DNA of 64,000 nucleotides from NCBI GenBank assembly GCA_964016885.1, contig OZ024746.1:50902001-50966000 (forward strand), written 5' to 3'. Positions 2,823 through 63,587 of this stretch are shown here, one piece after another. Origin of the DNA: Eledone cirrhosa (Eukaryota). Position numbers and translations under genes: made by a program. Each line of letters starts with the position of its first letter. The first letter of the stretch is position 1. The notes beneath the pieces were generated by a model that was not told the DNA's origin, did no database searches, and saw only the letters and a program-made list of their open reading frames with translations.

Positions 2823-3311
2823 ATATATATAGATATATATATATAGCCTCAGAAAAGGCTTGAGCTCTGCCGTAGGGTCAGGCTTCTTCCTATGTGTGTG
2901 TATATATATATATATATATGTATATGTATATATACGTTTTTGTATGTGTGTTTGTATTTCTGTGGTTGGGTTTTTGTGTGTGTGTGTGTGTGTATGTATA
3001 TATTTGTATGTGTGTGTGTGTGTGTGTATATGTATAATTGTATTAGGGTGTATGTATGTGCATCATTACATATAGTGATTTGATGAATATTAACCTCAAC
3101 GGGATTTGAGTTCAAATCCCGTCGAGGTTAACTTTGCCTTTCATCCTTACGGGGTCGCTAAAATAAAGTAGCAGTAGTGTACTGGGTAATTGCTGGCCTT
3201 GTGCCAAAAGTAGAAACAATTATATATAGTGATTTGATGAATATTTTCATTGATCTTTTGCTCCATGAACTTGTTGAGTGCTCTAGGTCTGCTATGGGCA
3301 TTTATACCCTT

Positions 3312-4669: not shown

Positions 4670-4853
4670 GAATAATTGCCTTATGTTGTTTATTACATAA
4701 CTATATATATATATTTATATATATATTTATATATATATATGTATATATTTATATATATATTTATATATATATATGCCCACTACTAATTTTCATAGAAAAA
4801 GCATATAACGATATGTGCTTTTACGATTCTCTAGAAAGGCCGGAAGATAGGTA

Positions 4854-4898
4854 AATATTGCTGATGAGATGTAACAACATCGAAACTAGTCCAATATT
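4854..4898 (+). ncRNA. Minimal type I hammerhead ribozyme
   Basis: AATATTG-CTGATGA-GATGT(AACA)ACATC-GAAA-CTAG-TC-CAATATT. 7-bp stem I, 5-bp stem II, palindromic ACTAGT stem III, GUC cleavage after 4891. Confidence 0.92.
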
Positions 4899-5226
4899 CC
4901 TTGTCTGGCTTTCTGGAGAATAGAGGAAAGGTGTTTCCTCGAAAACCAGTATGACTCTAAAAACCGGTTTGTCTGTGTGTTTACATACAGAATAGCTGGA
5001 CACTCACAGTAAAGTGTCCAGTGAAAAACTCGGTACATCTACATATGTACACGTGTGTGTATTCATATGCATACTAGTATTTCAGTATACATATGTGGAT
5101 GTACATTTTTAACTGAATTGTTTAAGCGTCAGTCATACAAAAGTGAGTTACAAACGAAACGAAATTTAATTTCGTTTCGTTATTTGTTTTTATCGTCTCC
5201 GCTGAACCGGTACGTACTCACGCTCT

Positions 5227-5234
5227 ATGCAAAT
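5227..5234 (+). promoter_or_regulatory. Octamer motif ATGCAAAT conserved between retrozyme-like families A and B
   Basis: 100 nt upstream of the hammerhead core. Also at 40348-40355, 46904-46911 and 62548-62555 (minus) and 47292-47299 (plus) in family A. Function is inferred. Confidence 0.45.
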
Positions 5235-5319
5235 TAGTCTGCCCACTACTAATTTTCATAGAAAAAGCATATAACGATATGTGCTTTTACGATTCTCTAG
5301 AAAGGCCGGAAGATAGGTA

Positions 5320-5364
5320 AATATTGCTGATGAGATGTAACAACATCGAAACTAGTCCAATATT
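5320..5364 (+). ncRNA. Minimal type I hammerhead ribozyme (identical second copy)
   Basis: Same sequence as 4854-4898, shifted by 466; predicted cleavage after 5357. Confidence 0.92.
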
Positions 5365-5666
5365 CCTTGTCTGGCTTTCTGGAGAATAGAGGAAAGGTGT
5401 TTCCTCGAAAACCAGTATGACTCTAAAAACCGGTTTGTCTGTTTGTTTACATACAGAATAGCTGGACACTCACACTAAAGTGTCCAGTGAAAAACTCGGT
5501 ACATCTACATATGTACACGTGTGTGTATTCATATGCATACTAGTATTTCAGTATACATATGTGGATGTACATTTTTAACTGAATTGTTTAAGCGTCAGTC
5601 ATACAAAAGTGAGTTACAAACGAAACGAAATTTAATTTCGTTTCGTTATTTGTTTTTATATATATA

Positions 5667-5783
<117 letters not shown>

Positions 5784-6003
5784 TTATATATATATATATT
5801 TATATATAAATGACTGTATATATATATATTTATATATATATATTTATATATAAATGACTGTTGTTTCATGTAAACAAACATTTGTCTCATTCTGACGTCA
5901 CCAGCCCTGTTTTTCCACATGTGCGTTTATTTTAATAACCACGCATGATGTTAAACTAGCCTGCTTTTAAATTCCCTTTTTGGCATATTGGTTACCATGT
6001 TGA

Positions 6004-6825: not shown

Positions 6826-7158
6826 ATAATATTAAATAAATGGAAACTATATTTATAAAACCATATTTATTTCATTATATATATTTCAGGGATATCATAT
6901 TAACAATATGCTATGCCTTCCTCAGACAAAATACAATATAAACAGTTTTATAGATAAATAGATTTGACATACCGTAACAACATCGACTTGTATTTGAAAA
7001 AGTTGAATTGGCAGTGAAAATGCTTTTATATCAGTTATAAATATTTACTAGTTGAATTGGCAGTGAAAATGCTTTTATATCAGTTATAAGTCGAATGCTT
7101 TTATATCAGTTATAAATATTTACTAGTTGTAACCCAACAATTTAAATATAACTTTCCA
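6826..7158 (-). mobile_element. Solo terminal-repeat fragment of the 10598-15021 PLE family with an inverted piece; hammerhead 6868-6933
   Basis: 6826-6995 matches 10690-10860; 7095-7158 is the reverse complement of about 10600-10663; flanked by (TA)n. Confidence 0.85.
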
Positions 7159-10603: not shown

Positions 10604-11148
10604 AAAGTTATATTTAAATTGTTGGGTTACAACTAGTAAATATTTATAACTGATATAAAAGCACTTGACAAATATTTGGTGTATATTTACAATATTAAAT
10701 AAATGGAAACTATATTTATAAAACCATATCTATTTCATCATATATATTTCAGGGATATCATATTAACAATATGCTATGCCTTCCTCAGACAAAATACAAT
10801 ATAAACAGTTTTATAGATAAATAGATTCGACATACCGTAAACAACATCTACTTGCATTTGAGAAGGTTGATTTGGTAGTGACAAAATTGTACACAGAGAG
10901 AAAGAAAGAGAGAGAGAAAAAAGAGAAAAAGAGAGAAAAAAGGAAAGAAAGACAGAAAACGAAGAAAAAGAAAAAGAAGAAATGCATGGAACAAAATAGA
11001 GAGATGGAAAGATAGATAAAGAGAAGAACTTCATGTAAAGAAACAGAAAGAGATATATATATAGAGAGAGGAAATAGAGATAGATACATATATATATATA
11101 GAAAGCTAGGTAGTGGGACGTCTGTTGAATAACGTATCAATGATACAT

Positions 11149-14100: not shown

Positions 14101-15021
14101 AAGTTTCTCTTGAATTTGACCCCTTGTATGATAGAAATTATATCGTTTTCAAAGTCAGATAAAAGTTTGCTAGGGGGTGGATTTCTTTTAGATTTGAAAA
14201 CTTTGTTTAAGTCCGAGACATTTTCGTTTGTATTAGATTTATCAAAGTGGAATGCTCGCCACCTGATTCTCCTTATAAAAGAGTCAGATTTATCTATTAA
14301 TTGTTTTATAAAGTCTTTGTTTCTAGGTAGAGGTATGTCTTTTAGAGAGGAAGTAATCTTAAAGAATTCCATTTTCCAGTTATAATATAAAGCGCTCAAC
14401 AATATTGGAGCAAGATATATGGAAAGTTATATTTAAATTGTTGGGTTACAACTAGTAAATATTTATAACTGATATAAAAGCACTCGACAAATATTTGGAG
14501 TATATTTACAATATTAAATAAATGGAAACTATATTTATAAAACCATATCTATTTCATCATATATATTTCAGGGATATCATATTAACAATATGCTATGCCT
14601 TCCTCAGACAAAATACAATATAAACAGTTTTATAGATAAATAGATTCGACATACCGTAAACAACATCTACTTGCATTTGAGAATGTTGATTTGGTAGTGA
14701 CAAAATTGTACACAGAGAGAAAGAAAAAGAGAGAGAAAAAAGAGAAAAAGAGAGAAAAAAGGAAAGAAAGACAGAAAACGAAGAAAAAGAAAAAGAAGAA
14801 ATGCATGGAACAAAATAGAGAGATGGAAAGATAGATAAAGAGAAGAACTTCATGTAAAGAAACAGAAAGAGATATATATATATAGAGAGAGAGAGGAAAT
14901 AGAGATAGATACATATATATATATAGAAAGCTAGGTAGTGGGACGTCTGTTGAATAACGTATCAATGATACATTTATTTATTTATTTATTTATTTAGCTC
15001 TAGTATTAATGTAAGGGAGAT
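10598..15021 (-). mobile_element. Near full-length Penelope-like element (Naiad-like) with ~600-bp direct terminal repeats
   Basis: Repeats 10598-11203 and 14416-15021 are nearly identical and each holds a hammerhead (10731-10796, 14550-14615); RT-EN ORF between them; 3' end abuts (TA)n. Confidence 0.93.
12220..14402 (-). pseudogene. PLE reverse transcriptase plus GIY-YIG endonuclease ORF, two frameshifts (about 13470 and 13195)
   Basis: QLDIANYYSSI, MGASDSAQVTDLVGLFL, GLYRDDML, IIWFAPPFS, CNCR..CPLNNNC..IVY..YVGST..FKLRYNN, CDLC, CCKH. Confidence 0.92.
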
Positions 15022-15800
15022 AAAATAAAGTAAAATAAAGTACCAGTAATACACTGGAGATAAAATAAAGTACCAGTAATACACTGGTCGATAAAATAAA
15101 GTACCAGTAATACACTGGGATAATTGCTGGCCTTGAGCCAAAAGTAGAAACAATTATTAATATTTGTCAAGGGCGGTGGATTGGCAGTATCGGTAGAGCG
15201 TCGGACACTATGCTTTTCAGCATAGAGTTACGGCCCTTTACGGTCTGAGTTAAAATCCCACCGAGGTTAACTTTTATCCTTACGGGGTCGATAAAATAAA
15301 GAACCAGTGAAATACTGGGGTCGATTTAATCGACATTCCCCTCCCCCAACTTACTGGCCGTGTGCCTATACTAGAAATCATTATTATTATTATTATTATT
15401 TTTGAAGGATGGTGGATTAGCAGAATCGGTAGAGCGTCGGACACCATTCTTCGTGGCATAGAGTTTATAGCCCTTTATGTTCTGTGTTCAAATCCCGTTG
15501 AGGTTACCTTTGCTTTTCATCTTTACGGGGTGGATAAAATAAAGTACCAGTAATTCACTGGGGTCGATCTAATCGACCTACCCCCAAATTGTTGGCCTTG
15601 TGCCTAAATCAGAAACCCTTATTATTACTATTTGTCAAGGGCGGTAGATTGACAGTATCGGTAGAGCGTCGGACACCCTGCTTTGTGGCATAGTTACGGT
15701 CTTTTACGTTCTGACTTCAACTTCCACCAAGGTTAGCTTTGCCTTACTGGGTCGATAAAATAAAGTACCAGTAACACACTGGGGTCGATTTAATCGATTT
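15021..15800 (+). mobile_element. Tandem cluster of about four tRNA-derived SINE copies
   Basis: GGCGGTGGATTGGCAGTATCGGTAGAG (A box)..GAGTTCAAATCC (B box)..GCCTTTCATCCTTACGGGGTCGATAAAATAAAGTACCAG..GGCCTTGTGCC..(ATT)n tail. Confidence 0.85.
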
Positions 15801-33390: not shown

Positions 33391-33496
33391 CGATTGTTGT
33401 TGTTGTTGTTATTGCTGTTGTTGTTATAATTATTACTATTATTATTATTGTCATTATTGATGTTGTTGTAGTTGTTGTTATCATTGTTATTATTAT

Positions 33497-34140
33497 AGAG
33501 GGCGGGGTAATGACAGTACCGGTAGAGGGTCGGACAATGTACTTTGCAGCATAGAGTTACGGCCCTTTATGATCTGAGTTCAAATCCTGCCGAGGTTAAC
33601 TTTGCCCTTTATCCTTACGGGATCGATAAAATAAAGTAACAGTAATGCACTGGGTAATTGCTGGCCTTGTGCCAAACGTAGAAACAATTATTATAGAGGG
33701 CGGGGGATTGACAGTATCGGTAGAGGGTTGGACAACATACTTTGCAGCATAGAGTTACGGCCCTTTATGATCTGAGTTCAAATGCTGTCGAGGTTAACTT
33801 TGCCGTTTATCCTTATAAGGTCGATAAAATAAAGTACCAGTAACGCACTGGGGTCGATTTCATCGACTTTCCCTTCCCCCCAAATTGTTGGCCTTGTGCC
33901 TATATAAGAAACCATTATTATTATTTCTTCTTTCTCAAGGGCGATGGATTGGCAGTATCGATAGAGGGTCGGACGCCATGTTTTGACGTATAGAGTTACG
34001 GCCCTTTCCATTCTGAGTTCAAATCTCATCGAGGTTAACTTTGCCTTTCATCCTTACGGGGTTGATAAAATAAAGTACCAGTAATGCAAAAGTACCAGTA
34101 ATGCAAAATGTGCCAAAAGTAGAAACAATTATTATTATTT
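33497..34140 (+). mobile_element. Three tandem tRNA-derived SINE copies
   Basis: Starts at about 33497, 33695 and 33938; long and short variants; a further full copy at 34559-34785. Confidence 0.88.
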
Positions 34141-34899
34141 CTTCTTTCTCAGGCTGTCCTTTTGCCGTTTTACTAAACCAAGAGAGCGGGTTATAAGTAA
34201 TGAAATAAAAACTGAGATTATGATCCCACCAGCCTTCTCAAATTTTTAGCTGTTCCTAGGAGTGTTGTTTTATGTACTACCTTTACCTGAAGACCATGTT
34301 TTTCTATACATTAAAAAAAAAGATTTTGGTCAAACAACCAAGAGCACCTAACGCTATTGGTATGACCTCAACCTTTCTTAGGTTCCATATTATTTGGACT
34401 TCAATTCTAAGGTACTGGTATTTATTAACTTTCTCTATATCTTTTGTGTGGATCCACTCATCTACAGGAATGGTAATTCAGTAATTCCACATATTTCTCT
34501 CTTTTTGTCTATCACAACAATATAAGTTCCCCTTATTATTATATTATCACACTGTATAAGGGCGGTGGATTGGCAGTATCGGTAGAGCGTCGGACACCAT
34601 GCTTTGCAGCATAGAGTTACGCCCCTTTATGATCTGAGTTCAAATCCCGTCGAGGTTAACTTTGCCTTTCATCCTTACGGGGTCGATAAAATAAAGCACT
34701 AGTGATGCACTGGGGTCGATTTAATCGGCTTTCCCCTCGCCCCAAATTACTGACCTTGTGCCTATGGTAGAAATCATTATATTATCACACTGTATAGTTA
34801 TGTTCCATAATACCATTAAACCATCACTCTCAACTACTTCCTCTACTTGATGTTATACCACAGTTCATTCCGTTCCAGATGATACTTCCCACAGAGCTT

Positions 34900-35961: not shown

Positions 35962-36310
35962 AAAGGTAAACAGAAACAACACAATCGGTACAGTATATGG
36001 AAGGTATATATTAGATTAACGCTTGATATAGCAGGAAGAGGGTCTTAACGTTTCGGATGCTAGTCCTTCATCAGAAGAAAGAATGAGAAATAAAATAGAT
36101 TGAGGGGACGAGCGGGATGGAATTGGAAAAAATGTCTTTAGATAGAAATAACAGGTCCATTCATGTTGACATCTCTTGCAAAACTGTTGATGCTGGCGTT
36201 TTGTGTATGATATATTTTAGAAAAGTGGATGATGGAGCGCATCTACCTGAAATGGAAAAAAAAAACGTTTTGTAAAAAGAGCTATACTTGAGCACGTGCG
36301 TAAGCATGTT
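35960..36310 (-). mobile_element. PLE terminal repeat with hammerhead 36043-36078
   Basis: TCTT-CTGATGA-AGGA(CTAGCA)TCC-GAAACGTT-AAGA on the minus strand; sister copy 55280-55620 with hammerhead 55353-55388. Confidence 0.75.
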
Positions 36311-36319
36311 TGTGTGTGT

Positions 36320-37750
36320 ACCAGTAACACACTGGAATAATTACTGGCCTTGTGCCAAATGTAGAAACAATTATTATTAATGGCGGAGGATGGCAGTATC
36401 GGTATAGCGTTGGACACTATTTAGTGGCTAATAATTACCTCCCTTTACGTTTGGAATTCAAATCCCGAGGAGGTTAGCTTTGCCTTTCATCTTTATGGGG
36501 TTGATAAAATAAAGCACCAGTAATGTACAACCCTTCGATCTAATCGACTTCCCCCTTGCCTTCAAATTGCTGGCCTTATGTCTATAGTAAAAGCAATTAT
36601 TATTATTAAAAAATAAAGTATTACGGCCCTTTATGATCTGAGTTATATATATTTATATATATGCGTAGTTTCCAGTAGGTATATTGGTGTTGTACTACAC
36701 TCTGTTAAGTATTATTAGTATGGATTGGCAGTATCGGTAGAGGGTCGGACACCATGCTTTCCAGCATAGTTACGTCTCTTTACCGTCTGAGTTCAAATCC
36801 CGCCGAGGTTAACTTTGCCTTTCATCCTTACGGGGTCGATAAAATAAAGTACCAGTAATACACTGGGATAATTGCTGGCCTTGTGCCAAAAGTAGAAACA
36901 ATTATTACTATTGGCAGTATCGGTAGAGAGTCTGACGCCATGCTTTGCAGCACAGAGTTATGGCCTTTTATGGTCCGAGTTCAAATCTCGTCGAGGTTAA
37001 CTTTGCCTCTGATCCTTACGGGGTCGATTAAATAAAGTACCAGTAATACACTGGGTTAATTGCTGGCCTTGTGCCAAAAGTAGAAACAATTATTACTAAA
37101 CATTTAAGCGCGGTATACATTTGTTAAATAGTAATTCATAGTTATCTGTTCTTTGTCATTTGGACATGTCGTTGTCCCAACACAAATAACTTTGAAATAA
37201 TGGTTTCTTATTTAGGCACAAGGCTAGTAATGTGGGGCGGAGGGGAAAGTCGATTAAATCGACTGCAGTGCGTGACAGGTACTTTATTTTATCGACCCTG
37301 TAAGGATGAAAGGCACAGTTAACCTCGGTGGGATTTGAACTCAGATCATAAAGGGCCGTAACTCTATGCTGCAAAGCATGCCGCCCGACCCTCTACCGAT
37401 ACTGTCAATCCACCGCCCTCAAATAACTTTAAAATAATACTAGAACTTATTCTATATCCCCTGGAAATAGAAAACAGTGACTGAGGCGCCTACGAGGCAT
37501 CGATCTGCATCCGAGAGATGTAGGGTTTGATTTGCTCGATTATTATTATAGGTATTTATAAGGTGGATTGGCAGTATCGGTAGAGGGTCGGACGCCATGC
37601 TTTGCAGCAAAGAGTTACGGCCCTTTATGGTCTGAGTTCAAATCCTGCCGAGGTTAACTTTGCCTTTCATCCTTACGGCATCGATAAAATAAAGTACCAG
37701 TAATGTACTGAAATAATTGCTGGCCTTGTGTCAAATATAGAAACAATTAT
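36320..37750. mobile_element. SINE cluster (about six copies, both orientations)
   Basis: SINE consensus at 36380, 36720, 36910 and 37560 (+) and 37195-37420 (-). Confidence 0.85.
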
Positions 37751-38106
37751 TATAGGCATTTACGTTGGGTTGACCACATTTCAAATTTTATTTATATATC
37801 TAAACATATATACGTCCATATGTACTCACACACACAAACATGTATGTAAATATACATATGGAACTAGCTAATGAAACGGCAGGAACTCAGCCGTTAGGGT
37901 CCCGACTCTTTATAATATATAACATACTCTACAACCCCAGGTATCAAGTACTCTGTTGCGTAATGGTTTAACCTGCTTCAAACTGAATCCATCTATATAT
38001 ATATATATTTTTTTTTTTAAAGTTGAGACAGTAAACAGAAAACAAAAAAAAACGTGGAAGCGAAGAGGCAGTACAAATGTTATTAGTTTCACGCTTGAGA
38101 GTGGAG

Positions 38107-38138: not shown

Positions 38139-38683
38139 TTAGAAATTATAAGCTTTCACCGTATTTTTAGACTAAAGAAATTTCTAGCCTGATAGTGGGG
38201 TTTATAACCCTTGGAGAAATGGAAAAAGATGAGTGTTGCCGTACATGGGAGTCGAACCCACATTTTTGGTTATCCAGACCACTGTGCTACCATTACACCA
38301 ATACACATCCCATCTCTTTCCATTCGAATTAGAAGCTATGAACTTAGCAAGTGAATGATAAACAAGCAAATTATAAACGTAAACATGTAAGTATGTTTTT
38401 GAAGCGGTGCGCGAGTTTGAAATTAGAAATTAGTGGTGTAATGGTAGCACAGTGGTCTGGATAACCAAAGATGTGGGTTCGACTCCTATGTACGGCAACA
38501 CTCATCTTTTTCCATTTCTCCGAGGGTTATAAACCCCACTATCAGGCTAGAAATTTCTTTAGTCTAAAAATACGGTGAAAGCTTATAATTTCTAATTTCT
38601 AATTTCAAACTCGCGCACCGCTTCAAAAACATACTTACATGTTTACGTTTATAATTTGCTTGTATATATATATATATATATAC

Positions 38684-39995: not shown

Positions 39996-41013
39996 AGTAT
40001 GTATGTATGTATGTATACGTACATACATATATGTATACAGACGTACAGTAGTATGTATATATATATACATACATGCACACATATATATATATGCACGTAT
40101 CGGTTTACCGAACATTTATTATAATGCTCGGTTTGTTTGTTTGTAAACAAACAAACAAACAAACAGCCCCAATTACGCCGTACAGTGTTTAGGCAACCAC
40201 GTCACCTTTTTGTTCAACACTGACACAGGAACGATGTACTAGTTTCAAGCTTATTAGCTATCGTCAGCATCTTATACCTTCCTGCCAGATGGTTGAACGT
40301 CTGAAAGTATATTCTTTCCTTATGCATATTAACGGCTGAGCAGCCTAATTTGCATATCGAATGAGATCAGTCGGCTGGGCGCACCGAAAACGATAAATGG
40401 AATAGAATGAAACGAAATTTCATTTCTCACTCTTGGTACGGCACTTACTTAAATGTAACTATGTATGTATGTATACGTACATACATATATGTATACAGAC
40501 GTACAGTAGTATGTATATATATACATACATGCACACATATATATATGCACGTATCGGTTTACCGAACATTTATTATAATGCTCGGTTTGTTTGTTTGTAA
40601 ACAAACAAACAGCCCGAATTACGCCGTACAGTGTTTAGTGACTGATCTCACTCGATATCCAAATTAGGCTGCTCAGTCGTTAATATGCATAAGGAAAGTA
40701 TATACTTTCAGACGTTCAACCATCTGGCAGGAAGGTATACGATGCTGACGATAGCTAATAAGCTTGAAGGTGACGTGGTTGCCTAACAATGTACGGCGTA
40801 ATTCGGGCTGTTTGTTTGTTTACAAACAAACAAACCGAGCATTATAATAAATGTTCGGTAAACCGATACGTGCATATATATATGTGTGCATGTATGTATA
40901 TATATACATACTACTGTACGTCTGTATACATATATGTATACATACATACATACTTACATTTAAGTAAGTGCCGTACTAAGAGTGAGAAATGAAATTTCGT
41001 TTCATTCTATTCC

Positions 41014-43749: not shown

Positions 43750-44002
43750 GTTTTCCTTCTCCTAGAATTCTGCCTTGACAAAGGCTAAGGGGTCATCTCT
43801 CCCGGTGATTTTGGATGGCCATTGACTCTTAAGAGCTCCTTTGCCCTTTGACAGGTTTTGTTTTTAGTCCTGCAGGATGTCCAAAGTCACCCTCCTCACC
43901 AAGAAACCTTGGTGGGGTTGCCAGTTTAGTCGCCAACGACTCGACCATGAGACAGGTTGTACTGGGATACATGTTACCAGTAGCACCAACTGGTGACCTG
44001 AC
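43750..44002 (-). mobile_element. LINE (RTE-like) 5' UTR with possible degenerate HDV-like ribozyme
   Basis: Homologous to 63873-64000 (+): GGTCG(A/G)GTC..GGCGACTAAAC(T/C)GGCAA; downstream AGGAGAAGGAAAACTCTGAT. Confidence 0.45.
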
Positions 44003-44104
44003 ATAATATACATATATACATACATACAAACAAGCATACATATACACGTTCACGCACACATGCACCCCCCACACACACGCGCACGCACTCACACACACAG
44101 ACAC

Positions 44105-46020
44105 ACCGAACTGAGTGGTCTCCGTTCATAGCGAGGGAACCGGTTCGTACCTTCCACGCTCACTTCCGGGCCCATACAGGTATCCGCGGCTCCACCGCGT
44201 CGGCTTCCTCGTTTTTCAATGTAGGCGAAGTCCGGTCTCTTCTTAATAAGCCATAGCTAGCAGTTCCTCCAGGATTACTCTGTAGTGTGGTATCTGGGAT
44301 GAGTAATGAAGTCCTAGTCGTGTTGGTCCCGTCGTTGTTTCCTTCCGATGCGTTACTGTCAGCGGTAACGTAATTCATTAGACTGGATATGCACTTAATT
44401 TCCTCTCTGTAACCTGCATTATTTATGCACTTAATTTCCTCTCTGTAACCTACACTATTGAAGGTTTCCTGGCTAGCTGACAGAGAAGAAATCCTACGGG
44501 ATACGCTATTTACTATGGCCCTCTTGACTGACCTGGGATGGCTGGAGTTGGCATTTACGTACTTGAGGCACTCGTTCGGCTTGTGGTACGGTTAGTAGAG
44601 TCCGGATTCTAGATTGAGGGTAACATCTAGGAAGTTGACTATCTTGCTATTATTTTCTATGTCTATGCTGAGGCCTAGGTTTTTGAAAAATCTAATTAAG
44701 CTCTTTCTAGTCCTATTTATCATGCTTTTGCTGTGGTCGAGTAGCGTAAACAACGCTAACCATGGAGGAACTGCTAACCATGGCTTATTAAGAAGGGACC
44801 GAACTTCGCCTACATTGGAAAACGAGGAAGCCGACGCGGTGGAGCCGCGGAGGACATGTGTGGGCCCGGGGATGAGCGTGGAAGGTACGAACCGCTTCCC
44901 TCGCTATGAACGGAGACCACTCAGTTCGGAGTGCTCCGATCGGCATAACCAACCCACGGGCAACGACGAATTCGGGGGCATGGCTCTTCCAGACGTACAC
45001 AGCGACTACGTAACACATACTCTGACGGAACGAGTACAGGGACTGGTGACTACAACAGGAAGCGAACCCGTTCCCGTAATGTCATTTGGTTTAACCCCTC
45101 CTCCTCATTCTGATCCGGTTTACGTAACAACCTAGCGGCCTCTTTCTTCAGGGCTTTGGATAAGCACTTCCATAAGCAGCACCGGTACTACGCCATTTTC
45201 AACAGGCACATGAATGTAGGGTGAATACCAACAACCAAACCTTCACATATATCGGAGCCACGGCTAATAAATTTAAGGAACGCTGGTACAATCACTGCCA
45301 CACCTTTAGGAGAGTTGATAAGAAACACAGCACCGCCCTCTCAGAACTGGTGTGGCGTCTCAAACATGATAACTTAGAATACACCTTGTCATGGTCCAAG
45401 GTAGCCTCAGTCCAACCCTACAGAGGGGGTGGACATGACTCGTGCGATTTGTGTGTCACAGAGATTATGGAAATAATCGAGAGGGGAGCTCGAGTTATCA
45501 ATAAAAGGAGTAACCCCTTCAGCACCTGCCGCCACAGATCATCTGGAACCTTCCTCAAACTGTACGGACTAACAACATAGTTGTACTAGTTGAGGACTAT
45601 TGCAAGCTTGACCGTGGAACCCGGGTGTGACCACACAACAACCCCAGCGTCAGGCGAACCATAGGTATCTTGTTTGCATACCTGGAGTCTCTGTGTTTGC
45701 ACACCTGGAGTCATGTTTCACGTCCCTTGTTCCTTATTCTCTGTTTATATACCTACTGTTGTTTTTTATGTATTTTGTCCCGTTCTTTTATTATTATGTT
45801 CTCTATATGTGTTCTCAATTTCTTATCTGCTTGTTCCTGTCCCTACTTTCGCTTCCTGTAACTCTATTCCATAGTCTAACAGCCCTTTTAATAGTATTGA
45901 TGCCACTGTAGTTAAGACTAAATGCTATTGTGGTTAACCGTTTTTTCTGCACTGTAATTATTGCTAGCCTTGTGCCTTAGAATGATAGACAGGACTGTAT
46001 TAACTGTGCATGTATTTATT
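44105..46020. mobile_element. Rearranged Naiad-like PLE: inverted RT-thumb piece (44270-44755, -) plus linker and GIY-YIG (44760-45580, +) and 3' UTR
   Basis: Minus: IVNFLDVTLNLESG..PYHKPNECLKYVNANSSHP. Plus: TYIGATANKFKERWYNH..STALSELVWRLK..CDLC..CRH. 44105-44270 is inverted relative to 44760-44930. Confidence 0.85.
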
Positions 46021-46825
46021 TATATATATAAATAAATTTATTTATATATATAAATCTATATTTCTATCCCATTTTCGCTTCCTTGTTTCAACGGACTACT
46101 ATTGTGGTTAGTTTATTTTACATGGAAGCGTGGCCTTTTCTTGTTGCCGCTGTCACCGTGGTGGGATCATCACTGGTGTTGTTGTTGTTGTTGGTGGTGG
46201 TGTTACCACGGTCTGGTTCCTGGGTAACGGGTGCTCACTGACATTGGCTTGATACTAATATCATTGATACCACCACTACTACGACGAACGGGGTAAGTGA
46301 TGGGCGGTGTTAATGTTTGTTGCTGTTACTATTGTTGTTGTTGCTATATATAGTCATGGTGATTGATGCCACCAATTCTGTGTATCCACCTACCTCAGAA
46401 CTCCTGTTTATTGCTTTGGTGTTATCGTTGTTATTGTCGACGGGGTGATAACGTCACTACGACTGCTACGGCCTGTATACACGACGCTGGTCTGTGTTTT
46501 TGCTGCTGTTGTTGTTGTTGCTGTAACTGTTTACAGTAGCTGTTGCTTTCGTTGTTGTCAGCAGGGTAGTAATATCACTACGACTGATGCGGCCAGTGTG
46601 GACGGTATTGGTCAGCGTTTTGCTGTTATTGCCGTTATTGTTGTTGTCGTTGTCGTTGTTGTTGTTGTAGTTGTTGTCTATAGTTGGTTGTCAACAAAGT
46701 ATATACCCCACCCTCCCTCAGAGCTCCATTTATTGCTTCCACTGTCTACTGGGCTTTGGCTACACACAGTTTTTTCGTTTTTTTCGTTGATAGTTTTTCC
46801 TAGCAAACAAGACGGCTGGCAAACC

Positions 46826-47424
46826 CTTCAAGCTATCGTCAACAACATATACCTTCCTGCCAGATTGTTGAACGTATATGCATATTAACAGCTGAGAAGC
46901 CCAATTTGCATATCGAGTGGGTTAATCGGCCGGGTGTACCGAAAAGGATAAACGGAAAAAATGAAACGAAATTTCATTTCCCACTCTTAGTACGGCTGTT
47001 ACTTAAATATAAGTATGTACACGTACATACATATATGTATACAGACGTACAGTTGTATATATATATACATACATGCACACATATATATATGTACGTATGG
47101 ATTCACCGAACATTTGTTATAATGCTCGGTGTGTTTGTAAACAAACATCCCGTATTAAGCCGTAGTGTCCAGCAACCGTCGTTGTACATACTTATATTTA
47201 AGTAACAGCCGTACTAAGAGTGGGAAATGAAATTTCGTTTTATTTTTCCGTTTATTGTTTTCGGTGCACCCGGCCGATTAACCCACTCGATATGCAAATT
47301 GGGCTTCTCAGCTGTTAATATGCATATGGTAAGTATATACGTTCAACAATCTGGCAGGAAGGTATACGTTGTTGACGATAGCTAATAAGCTTGAAACTAG
47401 TACAGCGTTCTTTTGTCAGTGTTG
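46826..47424. mobile_element. Diverged retrozyme family A copy as an inverted pair; hammerhead 47367-47407 (C3U variant)
   Basis: Permuted relative to 39990-40460 and reads through the monomer junction; CGTTG-TTGACGA-TAGCTAATAAGCTT-GAAA-CTAG-TA-CAGCG. Confidence 0.8.
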
Positions 47425-49200
47425 GAGTACCCTATACTTGAGTCCTTGAGGGACCATACGCGGCTCGCGAGTTTCGTGGATGAACGTCTGTCCGGGTATA
47501 TGAAGGTAGACTGGTGGTTCAGGAAACGCTCCTTGAATCGGCCCTCCGCCATGCCCACATAGAATTTGACCTCCTGTGGTTCGTTTGGTCGGTTGGAAGT
47601 GACGACAGCTTCATAGATTACAGCTGGTGTGTTGCATTGTTGCTGAAGGGGGCAGGCTTCAGGCTTACGGAAAGAGCACCCTGGTGGGGTGTTGCTCCTA
47701 GGGCTGCTGGTGATGTGGGCCTTCATGTTCTTAGCGCAGGAGTATCCTAGTTTAACTTTATGTCGGTTAAAGATGGAGCGGTATTTATGACCTATGGAGA
47801 AGTGTCTATCTAAGAGGGCTAGACATTTTTTTCCTTCATTGGTTTTAACGTTGAGTGAGAAGGGAGGAGAGAACCAGATAGTTTGTCTATTGATGCGCTT
47901 ACTTTTCTTAATGGTGTTGTTGCTAGTGGGAGAGTAGGTGATAGGTTGTGAGAAGCCGCTGTTAGCCAACGCCGTGTTATAGTAGGGTGCCGCCCTGTCA
48001 AAGAAAGCCTTATTAGAGGAGAGGTTTGAGATTCTAGTACTGATATTATTTACGAAGTTTCTAAAAACAGTGTTAGGGTGGCATGAGTCCTTGTGAATGT
48101 AATTAAGTTTCTCGTTTAGCTTATGGAAGGGTCTGTGGGTGTGTGTGCGAAGGTCTAAATTAATGTCTAAGAAATCTACGCTAGAGACATTAGTGGCTAC
48201 TGTTATCCTAAGGCCTAACTCACTGAGGGTAGAAGCTAAGTCTTTTTTAAACCGGTCGAGGTCGTGACCACTTTTATGGCTCGATAAAGTCAGTCCATCG
48301 TCACGGTATATTCCCGCGTGGAGGTCCGGGAATCTAACACGTAATATGTCTAAGATAAAAAGGCCAACCAAGTCACATACGTCAGCGCTGTCAAACGATC
48401 CTATGGAGACGTCGAACAGGTCTGAAGATGTAGACTTCTTTGCCCAGGCTACTCCGTTGTTGAAGAGGAGGGTTTTCCAGCAGTGAGCGATGATTTCCCT
48501 GTCTAAACCATCGAGGGTGGTATAAGTGGTAGCGAAGTCCAACGCTTTGTTTAACAGGGTCTCTGAGATCGACGGGTAAAAATCGACAATGTCAAACTGT
48601 GTGAACTTCGCTTTCTTGGATTTTAAGGAGTTAAACCACTTAATTACGGAGTCGCTGTTCTCCCACTGGGGCAGATTGGACTTGGTCCTAAGGGTCTTAA
48701 CTATGTTTCTAAGTATGGGCTTACTGACTAGTCCCATATCTGTGCGTGCCGGGTTTATTAGTCTACATGTGGGGTTAGAAGTAAAGTCTACCTTGTGATC
48801 TTTCAGGGTGAGGAACGCCTCCCGCTTAGCTAGAGATTGTAGCTTCTTATCTACCTTAAGGTCGGTGGCGAGTTCCTTGGCTTCTGTATTAATGTCATGG
48901 TAGGCCATAGGGTTAGCTTTCTTATATTTAGGAGTAATAGCGTTATGGGCCAGGTGGCGGAAAGTGGTGTTGTCGACTTCGTAAATATTATTAGTTTTGT
49001 CGGAAAGGACGAAGGTGTTATTAGAAAACCTAAATTTCTTGATATCGTTTCTGAGTTTCGTTTGAAAGGTGTTAGTGTGTTTGCGAAAGGAAATGTTAGC
49101 GACTAAGTCAAGAAGGTCCGTCTCGAAAGGAGCAAGTTCGGTTACCTTAGGAGGGTAGGTTCTCGATTTCGGGTTGAAGGTGTTCCGGACTTTCGCAGTT
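47425..49200 (-). mobile_element. Young Naiad-like PLE ORF (RT plus GIY-YIG), truncated at both ends
   Basis: The frame stays open upstream of the listed ATG to about 49200 (FETDLLDLV..SDKTNNIYEV). QFDIVDFYPSI, GIYRDDGL, FLDINL, VIYEA..FYVGMAEGRFKERFLNH. Lacks the terminal CxxC..CxH. Confidence 0.93.
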
Positions 49201-49312
49201 ATCTCCCTTACACTCCCCGCACGCAGTCTAGTATTGCCTATGTGAAGTGACCGAGTTTCTGCGCATGCGCGCTCGTACGGTTGTCCTTCCTGTTCCTATA
49301 ACCATTCACATC

Positions 49313-49352
49313 CCGAGCTGAAGATCCGCGAAGGTGAAACAATTGTTCTCGG
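49313..49352 (+). ncRNA. Minimal type I hammerhead in an inverted terminal repeat (49200-49450) at the PLE 5' junction
   Basis: CCGAG-CTGAAGA-TCC(GCGAA)GGT-GAAA-C-AATT-G-TT-CTCGG. Confidence 0.8.
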
Positions 49353-49462
49353 TATGGTGAACTAACTGTTGTGTAACCACTTCTACCTAACTCGTCCCTT
49401 GGACTGAGTGCTCTACCACTACGGATATTACCTTCCAGTGTTCCACCACTATATATATATAA

Positions 49463-52608: not shown

Positions 52609-52788
52609 ACGAAGGCTTGAGTTCTGCGGTCGGGGTCATGAACATTTTCCTATATATATATGTAGATAAATCTATGAAAATCATAGGAAAACAGAGTCAA
52701 GATAAATTAATAAAAACAATGAATAAAAACAAAGAACAAGTTCCTTATAATATAAGTAGTAACACAACAGTTAGTTCACCATATCAGT

Positions 52789-52827
52789 CCGAGCTGAAGA
52801 TCCGCAAGGTGAAACAATTGTTCTCGG
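52789..52827 (+). ncRNA. Minimal type I hammerhead flanked by a 30-bp inverted repeat
   Basis: CCGAG-CTGAAGA-TCC(GCAA)GGT-GAAA-C-AATT-G-TT-CTCGG; arms 52754-52783 / 52828-52857. Confidence 0.82.
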
Positions 52828-52931
52828 TATGGTGAACTAACTGTTGTGTTACTACTTCTACCAAACTCGTCGCATGGACTGAGTGCTCTACTACTACGGA
52901 TATAACCCTCCAGTGTCCTACCTTTATATAT

Positions 52932-55278: not shown

Positions 55279-55799
55279 TTAAAAATCGGAACAGTCGGAA
55301 CAGTATATGGAAGGAATATATTAGGTTAACGCTTGAAATAGCAGGAAGAGGTTCTTAACGTTTCGGACGCTAGTCCTTCATCAGAAAAAAGAATAAGAAA
55401 TTAGATATATTGACGTGTCGGGCGGGATGGAATTGGAAAAAAATGTCTTTAGATAAAAATAACAGGTCCATTCATGTTGACATCTCTTGCAAAACTGTTG
55501 ATGCTGTTGTTTTGTGTATGATATATTTTTTTAGAAAAGTGGATGATGGAGCGCATCTACTTGAAATGGAAAAAAAAAACCGTTTTCTATATAGAGCTAT
55601 ACTTGTGAGCGCGCGTGTGTGTGCGTGCGTGTGCGTATGTACGCATACACGCACATATATGGAAAATTATAATAAAGATTTGAAGATGCATCTAATGTTC
55701 TATATTTACATGCAATGTTAAAGTATACAAAGAAAAGAAATTTGTTCATACAAAATAAATTATAGTTTTTTTAAAGACTTATATAGATGAGTTTACTGA

Positions 55800-57350
55800 A
55801 ATAGTTGTTTCTACTTTTGGCACAAGGCCAGCAATTATCAGTGCATTACTGGTACTTTATTTTATCGACCCCGTAAGAATGAAAGGCAAAGTTAACCTCG
55901 GCGGGATTCGAACTCAGAATGGCAAGGGCCGTAACTCTATACGTCAAAGCATGGCGTCCGACCCTCTACCGATACTGCCAATACTGAAATAGTAATAATT
56001 AATTATTATACTAACCGATTTCGTTATGAGTAGCTTTTCAAAGTTGCATTTTAATTTGTGCTGGTGTTGAATATACTTTACATGTGTTATTTTGTACCAC
56101 TTATATCCATTCCAAATCAAGGGAAGCAATTCTGGTTATACTATGAAAGGAATTACATGCCGCATGCTACTTGCTGACCTAGAACGTGTTTAGGTTCGGT
56201 TTGTATTTAGTCATGAAGTATATTTCCTTATTAATACACTATTGTTCCATTGTTGAATTTCTACATTGATAGAATAGGAAAACGTCGAAATTTGGCAAGG
56301 TTCGTCCCTGTAACTCAGTATACGTTGACTCAGTGGGATTTTTCTTGTGTACAGTTCTAATTTGTTGACAGTATATTGTCATCTTTTGTCAGAGTGTCAG
56401 ATCTGCTTGACCAATGTAGTGTTTATGGTAACCTTTACATGCTATAATATATATTAAATTATATGAGCTACAGGAGAAGTTGTTTTTACCTTAAAATATA
56501 GGTTCTTCTTTGAAATACAATTCGGGACCTCTAATAAATAGCTGCGTACTCCGCCGTTTGGTTGGTTGCATTTATTAACTTCAGGATCTTCATGACCTTC
56601 AGTCCCTTAGTAGAATGGGTAGGTCTGATTGTAAGTGCATATAGATTTCGGTGTTCTTTGAATAGAAAGTCAAAATATAGGATATAACCTTTTTTCTTTC
56701 TTTTGATTTTGTTTCTCGGAGTCTCACCATACCAATTTGTATTGATTTTTGGTTAAATTGAGAGGATAATTCCACTTGGTGAGTATTTTCTCATTTTTCA
56801 TATTCTGTGATTTCTTGTTGGAATTTAGGCTATTCTTATTCTGCATGGCTCAGACTGGTCTACCTAATTATGAGTACTACGTGTGTTAATATAACTTGTT
56901 CTGTTTTGTTTACTATATATTCTACTATGCGTGTGGTATGCTAATATATTGGGTATTAAGTCTTGGAATAGCGGTGGATTAGCAGTATCGGTAGGAACGT
57001 CAGACACCATGCTTTGCAGCATAGAGTTATAGCCCTTTATGTTCTAAGTTCAAATCAGCCGTGGTTAACTTTGCCTTTCATCCTTACGGGATCGATAAAA
57101 TAAAGCACCAGTAATGTACTGGGATAATTCTTGGCCTTGTGCCAAAAGTAGAAATAATTATGTTTTAGATTGGCAGTATCGGTAGAGGTTCGAACGCCAT
57201 GCTTTGCAGCATAGAGTTACACCTCTTTATGTTCTGAGTTCAAATCAGCTGAGGTTAGCTTTGCCTTTCATTCTTACGAGGTTGATAAAACAAAATACTA
57301 GTAATGTACTGGGATAATTGCTGGCCTTGTGCCAGAAGTAGAAACAATTA
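55800..57350. mobile_element. SINE copies at 55800-55982 (-), 56970-57160 (+) and 57165-57350 (+)
   Basis: Match to the SINE consensus. Confidence 0.85.
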
Positions 57351-57796
57351 TGTCTGTGTTCACATGCATCTCTATAGACATGTGTGATCTTGTGTGTGTG
57401 CGTATATATAATATATATAATTAACATATGTAGAATGTCTTGTCTGTTGTAGGTTTTTATACATGTTGTAGGTTTTTATACATGTTGTAGGTTTTTATAC
57501 ATGTGCATGTAACAATGCATGCGTGGTTGTGTAGATACGTGTCTATGTGCATATGTTTGTATGTGTGTGTATGTATGTGTGTGCTTGTGTGTGGGTATAT
57601 GGGCGAACGATTTTTTTTTGTTCTATTAAACAATTACTTTAGCAGGATTTATTAAATTATGCAGGGGAATTAACTGTGTTAGTATACAATAATGTATGAG
57701 AAGAGTTGTTTCCCTTAGATGTCGGCTCACCGAGAGCAACGCTGAAACGAGGAATTGTCAACACGTAGCGAGGTGCTTTGGCACTGCATATATTAT

Positions 57797-62152: not shown

Positions 62153-63587
<1,435 letters not shown>

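Follow-up and report, generated by a model that had tools for sequence, protein, structure and literature searches.

Introduction

The promoter of newt satellite 2, a hammerhead repeat, reportedly contains an octamer and a PSE. It was assigned to the snRNA type and to Pol II (Coats, Zhang and Epstein 1994, as cited in PMC2220036). A 2020 review (PMC7761336) presents retrozymes as strongly expressed, an unusual trait among retroelements, and the model that it gives holds them to be promoterless and dependent on read-through. Circularisation of their RNA is ascribed to RtcB in PMC7229834. The internal-promoter cases of newt and schistosome, both from the 1990s, have stayed isolated, whereas in the genome studied here about ten lineages keep parts of the host snRNA promoters at fixed spacing. 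In the literature searched, which included few subscription papers, we found nothing on these repeat families or their promoter grammar, on cephalopod retrozymes, on octamers in retrozymes or on the octamer position in mollusc U6 genes, part of which may be contained in the 1994 newt paper or in the supplement of PMC7229834. No cephalopod retrozyme appears in the text of PMC7229834 consulted.

In the present work, the window denotes the whole stretch of DNA analyzed, namely 64,000 nucleotides (positions 50902001-50966000 of contig OZ024746.1) of the 3.0-Gb genome of Eledone cirrhosa. A preliminary description of this window had claimed that two divergent families of hammerhead repeats, A and B, conserve an octamer cassette upstream of the ribozyme and that each unit carries its own snRNA-like promoter. 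Here, these repeats are compared with the promoters of the host's own small RNA genes and with further ribozyme families of the same genome.

Materials and Methods

Host promoters were taken from the U1, U2, U4, U5, U12, U6, U6atac, MRP and tRNA-Sec genes of the genome itself. The Pol III type-3 set comprised seven promoters (three U6, U6atac, MRP and two tRNA-Sec) and the Pol II snRNA set fifteen (U1, U2, U4, U5 and U12); they were drawn from loci L058, L059, L061, L116, L123, L385 and L386, and L031-L048 and L364-L384. Duplicate or near-duplicate cluster copies were left out of the counts, as were 14 dispersed U6 matches and five of the six U6atac matches without upstream elements, which are likely retrocopies (one left-out match, L101, has an octamer at -275). 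Two U6 copies with an insertion-displaced promoter, two U2 genes whose core reads TCAAT (L114, L115) and RNase P were also left out.

Families C to H were found with octamer-based patterns and family Y was first found by a ribozyme-only pattern. A reverse pattern made of core, TATA and ribozyme, with no octamer term, gave 1,997 matches vs 43, and 21 of its loci were inspected. Variation in family A was followed on 51 ribozyme-anchored sequences, 32 of which reach the octamer region. Monomers were folded as circles and compared with 25 shuffles each.

Results

Repeats of the window and their ribozymes

The features of the window are collected in Table 1. The family B array is flanked by (TA)n tracts at 4702-4774 and 5657-5852, and its first unit starts directly downstream of the octamer. 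Each of the three family A loci includes an inverted part. The words quoted in the preliminary description were found as claimed: TTTATCGT, TATGCAAATTAG and GCATATAACG in B, and TTTATCGT and TATGCAAATTAG on the minus strand in A, at 62597/62556 and at 40397/40356. Upstream of the octamer there is a T-rich stretch with TTTATCGT and AATTTCGTTTC (5189-5196 and 5170-5180 in B; 62597 in A).

Table 1. Positions of the repeats, of their parts and of a neighbouring Penelope-like frame, in window coordinates
Feature	Positions	Strand	Basis or remark
Family B retrozyme array, 1.9 units x 466 nt	4774-5659	+	Tandem period 466, 99% matches
Hammerhead, first B unit; predicted cleavage after 4891	4843-4914	+	
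TTTATCGT block, common to A and B	5189-5196	+	Sequence; low variation in A
Predicted hairpin in B, octamer as 5' arm	5225-5262	+	
TATGCAAATTAG in B; octamer proper 5227-5234	5226-5237	+	Extended form as in host U6, U6atac, MRP and tRNA-Sec
Position of the Pol II snRNA core in B, reading CCACT (host YCAGY)	5243-5247	+	Weak match, score -2.1, p=0.25
GCATATAACG in B	5267-5276	+	Sequence
TATA box in B; 43 nt after octamer start, 27 nt after core position	5270-5274	+	
Predicted transcription start in B (TATA +29/+30), 58 nt upstream of the cleavage site	5299-5300	+	Inferred from host spacing
Type I hammerhead, second B unit; core 5327-5357	5309-5380	+	Rfam HH9
Predicted cleavage, second B unit	after GUC at 5357	+	
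Family A insertion with inverted part; octamer 40355-40348, hammerhead core from 40267	40000-41010	-	
Inverted pair of A copies, ATGCAAATTGG subfamily; octamers 47292 (+) and 46911 (-)	46790-47424		Abuts Penelope-like ORF
Penelope-like RT + GIY-YIG frame, 632 aa, DKT and YRDD motifs	47397-49295	-	GIY-YIG/RT look-alikes
Family A unit	62180-62642	-	Octamer 62555-62548, core TCAGC 62539-62535, TATA from 62513, predicted start 62483, hammerhead core 62467-62437
Inverted partial A copy, joined to the A unit 62180-62642	62646-62950	+	Arms 62268-62528 / 62646-62906, 98%

The ribozymes of both families have the CUGAnGA/GAAA/UH core, three helices and the open helix I of type I hammerheads. The Rfam HH9 match to the B hammerheads (E 3.9e-08, 38.9 bits) stays under the gathering score of 52, and no Rfam hammerhead reaches the gathering score within the window. 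As had been announced, the ACTAGT stem III is present in A and B alike, and stems I and II differ between the families yet pair (6-7/7 and 4/5 pairs in A; 7/7 and 5/5 in B). The common unit size of about 463-466 nt did not hold: B monomers measure 461-469 nt (33 distinct monomers) and A monomers 422-538 nt (16 distinct monomers). Some B copies carry GUU at the cleavage site. By analogy with amphibian hammerhead motifs, for which dimeric cleavage is described (PMC7761336), the one-pair helix III suggests that the A and B ribozymes would cleave as dimers.

Genome-wide, the CTGAnGA..GAAACTAGT core gave 40,667 matches vs 25 for the reversed control, and the octamer and ACTAGT at the spacing of family B gave 7,659 vs 6. 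Arrays reach at least about 32 units among the matches listed. The units are short, low in GC and tandem, with one type I hammerhead each and no long ORF (coding capacity being judged from unit size and sequence). Among 60 loci, 34 distinct insertions were seen whole; inversion was found in 16 of them and a flanking microsatellite in 29, for a window background of 8.5%. When folded as circles, monomers are predicted to be far more stable than their shuffles in A (z -9.7), B (z -15.4), Y (z -8.1) and C (z -2.7). By every DNA-level feature tested, A and B are non-LTR retrozymes, their expression and cleavage being predictions. Identity with Penelope pseudo-LTRs was considered and rejected: both families occur as free tandem monomers and do not form the end of an element with a Penelope ORF. 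In a collection of contigs of unknown kind, one of 495 nt runs back into its own start; it fits a circle or a collapsed tandem and was set aside as no evidence of expression, and summed depth was likewise not taken as a measure of expression. One B copy lies inside a U1 cluster spacer (L041:182), and copies of A/B and Y sometimes adjoin (L482).

On the basis of insertion anatomy, we propose that a Penelope-like element of the kind found in the window mobilises the repeats. Its 632-aa frame, the 3' end of which is cut off at an A copy, gave no match in Pfam and PDB sequence searches; the DKT motif has been described for the Hydra clade. An end repeat containing a minimal hammerhead (ACAATTGT stem III) occurs twice on the plus strand, at 49238-49460 and 52780-52925, and fragments of a second Penelope-like element span 43829-45580, including a GIY-YIG frame at 45176-45580 (+). 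Penelope-like matches were found near a minority of loci, and these belong to divergent families at differing positions.

Other CTGAnGA..GAAA motifs of the window, all on the minus strand and in repeated elements (6876-6925, 10741-10788, 14560-14607, 36038-36074 and 55348-55384), are possibly minimal hammerheads of Penelope ends. The window also contains many copies, partly tandem, of a tRNA-derived SINE-like family (3103-3230, 15086-15790, 33489-34780, 36449-37778 and 56968-57358), which look similar to octopus SINEs, and an inverted pair of tRNA-like matches (Rfam RF00005) at 38240-38304 (-) and 38434-38489 (+).

Promoter grammar of the host

In all seven type-3 promoters, the octamer is present in the form ATG(C/G)(A/T)AAT(T/G)AG at -76 to -79, and TATA at -30/-31. 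No octamer was found within -100 in the 15 Pol II snRNA promoters. All 15 carry YCAGY at -55 to -58, with AATT(A) 32-34 nt upstream of it; at that position, YCAG was seen in none of the seven Pol III promoters. A TATA-like word near -30 is found in the Pol II snRNA promoters also, and the presence of TATA in both classes is unlike the situation in vertebrates. A further element, TTAYYTCCC, lies near -260 to -290 in most U1/U2 genes and in all three U6 genes, and the 3' box of the host snRNA genes resembles AAAWYAGA. None of the host promoters examined combines the octamer with the Pol II core.

In this host, the octamer is a proximal element which marks the Pol III type-3 class. It had been presented beforehand as the motif of snRNA distal elements, and its position and class in the genes counted above contradict this. 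The extended octamer word resembles the Oct-1 consensus. In vertebrates, the distal element is located at -170 to -250 (PMC9652321). A model with a distal octamer was rejected for the repeats as well, since their octamer lies about 72 nt before the predicted start and host Pol II snRNA genes have instead TTAYYTCCC near -260.

The single RNase P RNA gene (L122:1200-1500) has no octamer and contains AAATCAGT and two TTAYYTCCC sites; it may be of the Pol II type, with a core-TATA spacing that fits imperfectly. In two copies of the U6 cluster (L064, L065), a SINE-like insertion moves the octamer about 190 nt from the gene.

The cassette upstream of the ribozyme

The preliminary description had called for a comparison of the 80-100 nt between octamer and ribozyme with the host promoters, and this comparison brought out a core and a TATA at host-like spacing. 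The order is octamer, YCAS 16 nt on, and TATA 26-27 nt after YCAS. Counted from the octamer start, the core word at 16 nt reads TCAGC in A, CCACT in B and TCACC in C, and its CA is invariant across six lineages. From YCAS to TATA, the distance is 26-27 nt in A, B, C, D, E, G, H, I and Y and 26-28 nt in F, which is the host Pol II spacing. The full word YCAGY stands 24-29 nt before TATA in A, D, E, G, H, I, C2 and Y, with one mismatch in B, C and F. As most families share ancestry, their agreement is not independent.

An octamer-ribozyme pattern without a TATA term gave 49 distinct matches, of which 37 have TATAW at 38-50 (with a peak at 42-43 and a background of 17%) and 40 have CA at 17-18. 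The 21 loci inspected for the reverse pattern were distributed between family Y (five), loci without a convincing ribozyme by eye (eight) and other ribozyme-like loci (eight). Among these last eight, ATGCAAAT stands exactly 16 nt before the core in four, is degenerate in three and is lacking in one; the new family I is among the loci with ATGCAAAT. In the older ribozyme lineages I, C2, F and G (L513, L514; L510-L512; L196-L199), the octamer is present and the spacing varies.

Family Y (L423, L419-L443, L479-L508) has a 316-nt unit and about 2,000 copies. It carries no octamer, and its AATT, AATCAGY and TATA are at host Pol II spacing, with 33 nt from AATT to the core. Over the whole unit, the highest Pol II score falls at the expected place and was reached by none of 100 shuffles, at a value of 12.9 vs 23-30 in host Pol II genes. 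Taken alone, the core is a short and weak signal: when only core and TATA were scored over whole units, the value was reached by 29/100 shuffles in A, 6/100 in B, 7/100 in C and 4/100 in Y, and the best site in B falls elsewhere in the unit.

Several host elements are reduced or missing in the repeats. The AATTA block scores from -12.7 to 0.2 in families A to H, vs 4.0-9.8 in host genes, and is partial only in Y; no distal TTAYYTCCC element was found in those monomers of A, B, C and Y that were tested. For the host 3' box, the sense strands of 51 monomers gave 7.0 at best, vs 10.3-17.9 in 13 host genes, and read-through to the next ribozyme is therefore predicted.

Pol II or Pol III

The octamer could also belong to a U6-like Pol III type-3 promoter with a shortened octamer-TATA distance, T runs of five or six upstream of the octamer acting as leaky terminators and read-through yielding full monomers. 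A matrix built from five host Pol III promoters places its best site at the octamer in both A and B (0/500 shuffles reach the score in either), and the TATGCAAATTAG 12-mer scores 19.3-19.4, within the range of the host Pol III sites (16.9-19.4). The 8 nt that follow the 12-mer also fit the host Pol III extension (p=0.010 in B, p=0.036 in A), whereas the Pol II core of B gives p=0.25. Many A monomers, as well as B and C, have T5-T10 runs at a distance of 40-60 nt on the upstream side of the octamer, and a Pol III promoter has been attributed to the schistosome hammerhead satellite (as cited in PMC2220036).

However, the octamer-TATA distance is 42-43 nt in A, B, C, E, H and I, against 46-48 nt in all seven host type-3 genes. 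Families F and G, both degraded, do show 47-48 nt, and even there TCAG keeps 26-28 nt to TATA in spite of the longer distance. Strict Pol III composite scores are 11-15 in the repeats vs 24-28 in the host, family Y is entirely without octamer, and the T5/T6 runs inside the monomers would have to be crossed; T-run depletion on the sense strand, tried as a Pol III test, gave no signal. Taken together, a Pol III type-3 promoter appears unlikely.

Conservation and folding of the octamer block

The 12-mer TATGCAAATTAG is the longest exact word common to one A and one B monomer, the longest common ribozyme word being 9 nt; the octamer also forms part of the longest word shared by A and C and of the second-longest shared by B and C. 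In family A, the claim that the octamer is conserved above its flanks stood in part. Its minor-allele frequency is 0.028 vs 0.105 and 0.167 in the flanks, about equal to that of the ribozyme core (0.030), and the octamer is intact in 24 of the 32 sequences; but equally low variation is seen in 9 of the 108 other windows of nine columns, so that conservation within family A does not single it out. In 13 of the 32 sequences, the difference lies just after the octamer and defines the TTGG subfamily, ATGCAAATTGG, which has spread widely though it is unlike any host promoter.

These data bear on the possibility that the cassette is kept at the RNA level, for the folding of the circle or for recognition by a Penelope RT or a host protein, while transcription comes by read-through from outside promoters. 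The circles fold far above their shuffles, and octamer and TATA lie within predicted hairpins in A, B, C and E. The blocks TTTATCGT and AATTTCGTTTC are likewise common to A and B, and retrozymes seem promoterless according to the 2020 review (PMC7761336), where read-through from outside is proposed. Against this, the 3' arm of the octamer hairpin differs from lineage to lineage, its 5' arm retaining the host promoter word; lineages with a weak hairpin (-5.2 kcal/mol in C2, -1.7 kcal/mol in I) have preserved the octamer, TATA is kept at 42-43 although it is in a loop in A and in a stem in B, and the three motifs keep a host-like spacing.

Other ribozyme repeats of the genome, mostly resembling Penelope ends, are without the cassette. 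Family X, the only family among the 30 loci examined from the Rfam RF00163 genome search (L334-L363), showed no octamer within 130 nt in any of them, and 16 non-Y matches of the ribozyme pattern had neither octamer nor core and TATA upstream. Maintenance at the RNA level alone is thus quite unlikely. Family X, which is single or inverted with a T-rich upstream region, is likely a Penelope 3' end.

A bidirectional promoter using the 3' arm of the hairpin was also considered and rejected; the antisense site in B scores 9.9 and, by eye, has no TATA at the right distance. A metagenome scan for octamer and ribozyme gave 121 sites in 118 loci, with two structured ribozymes, neither of which has TATA at 38-50, and none of the sites was convincing.

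Discussion

The last 130 nt or so before the cleavage site form a cassette that matches parts of host snRNA promoters, namely octamer, YCAS core and TATA. That this cassette has some promoter function is very probable. The earlier proposal of an snRNA-like promoter in each unit is borne out as far as the match with host snRNA and type-3 promoters and the occurrence in further families are concerned, and has to be amended for the octamer, which is not a distal-element motif. The proposal of an old self-cleaving lineage is consistent with the further families that bear the cassette.

Concerning its type, we consider it fairly probable that the cassette works as a promoter of the Pol II snRNA type that has borrowed a proximal octamer; its predicted target is the next tandem unit. 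The hybrid model of octamer and core was fitted after the data had been seen, and the octamer dominates its score; the focal family B, which is very young, has the weakest core and spreads nonetheless. Octamer+TATA promoters exist in immunoglobulin and histone H2B genes, and the spread of B despite its weak core would suit a generic Pol II minimal promoter of this mRNA type, with no need of SNAPc and an incidental CA, but the invariance of that CA in six lineages and the snRNA core without octamer of family Y make such a promoter very improbable.

For the Pol II snRNA-type promoter, the following mechanism can be proposed. An Oct/POU factor bound to the octamer would help SNAPc onto the core, the octamer taking the place of two elements that are missing from the octamer-bearing units, distal TTAYYTCCC and the AATTA block. 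Initiation by Pol II would fall about 30 nt past TATA, which is 47-60 nt upstream of the cut and not beyond the outer part of stem I. With no 3' box, it would read through the unit into the next ribozyme, and two cuts would free a monomer whose 3' end holds the promoter and which RtcB would close into a circle. A Penelope-like RT/endonuclease would then copy this circle, giving tandem arrays that are often 5'-inverted. The promoter in the 3' end of a unit would in this way serve the next ribozyme and unit, not its own, and each copy likely drives transcription of its neighbour. Tandem copying would place a promoter upstream of each unit, in the manner of an LTR, so that the cassette would be under selection.

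More tentatively, an old radiation of retrozymes may have made a chimeric internal promoter that is seen in no host gene here, joining a proximal octamer of the Pol III class to the core and spacing of Pol II snRNA genes in the 3' end of the circle, with each unit switching on the next. Its lineages might even swap promoter modules, family Y having a pure U1/U5-type grammar.

The promoter reading yields exact start sites that can be tested and would account for the need of tandem copies. If the chimeric reading is true, around 40,000 potential genes for circular RNA, driven by Oct/SNAPc, would be present in the genome, and the families would constitute a natural mutagenesis series for the choice of Pol II or Pol III by snRNA promoters. 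The host grammar, in which the Pol III genes have the proximal octamer and the two classes share TATA but not the core, should be useful for expressing U6-driven guide RNA or circular RNA in this animal group.

Comparison with known systems

The repeats share many features with the non-LTR retrozymes of coral, mussel and axolotl, as described in PMC7229834: low-GC tandem units of a few hundred bp with a type I ribozyme and no ORF, a strongly self-paired circle and a proposed mobilisation by Penelope. The one-pair helix III with palindromic tetraloop of axolotl HHR_Amex1 is also that of A and B, and the U-U at the base of helix II of HHR_Amex2 is found in family A (both PMC7229834). The units studied here are at the upper range of retrozyme size (466 nt in B, up to 538 nt in A) and carry the cassette, whereas for the metazoan retrozymes the main account in PMC7229834 describes no promoter.

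Penelope-like elements likewise have hammerheads and tandem and 5'-inverted insertions, and a microsatellite bias is reported for Naiad/Chlamys (10.1101/2021.04.23.441226), as in the present repeats. They differ in encoding protein, of which the repeats encode none, and the repeats of this genome whose ribozymes resemble Penelope-like ends are without the cassette.

Compared with the host genes, the repeats have in common with the Pol III type-3 promoters a proximal TATGCAAATKAG site followed by TATA; in the latter, however, octamer and TATA are 46-48 nt apart and there is no YCAGY, whereas most repeats show 42-43 nt and a core. With the host Pol II snRNA promoters they share the YCAGY-like core 26-27 nt before TATA and a predicted purine start. 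These host genes have no proximal octamer and possess a 3' box and, mostly, TTAYYTCCC near -260, while the octamer-bearing repeats are without AATTA.

Finally, newt satellite 2 is also a hammerhead tandem repeat with an internal promoter of the snRNA type, used by Pol II (PMC2220036). Its promoter follows the PSE/octamer grammar of vertebrates, whereas the repeats described here match the differing grammar of their own host, with an octamer that comes from its Pol III class.
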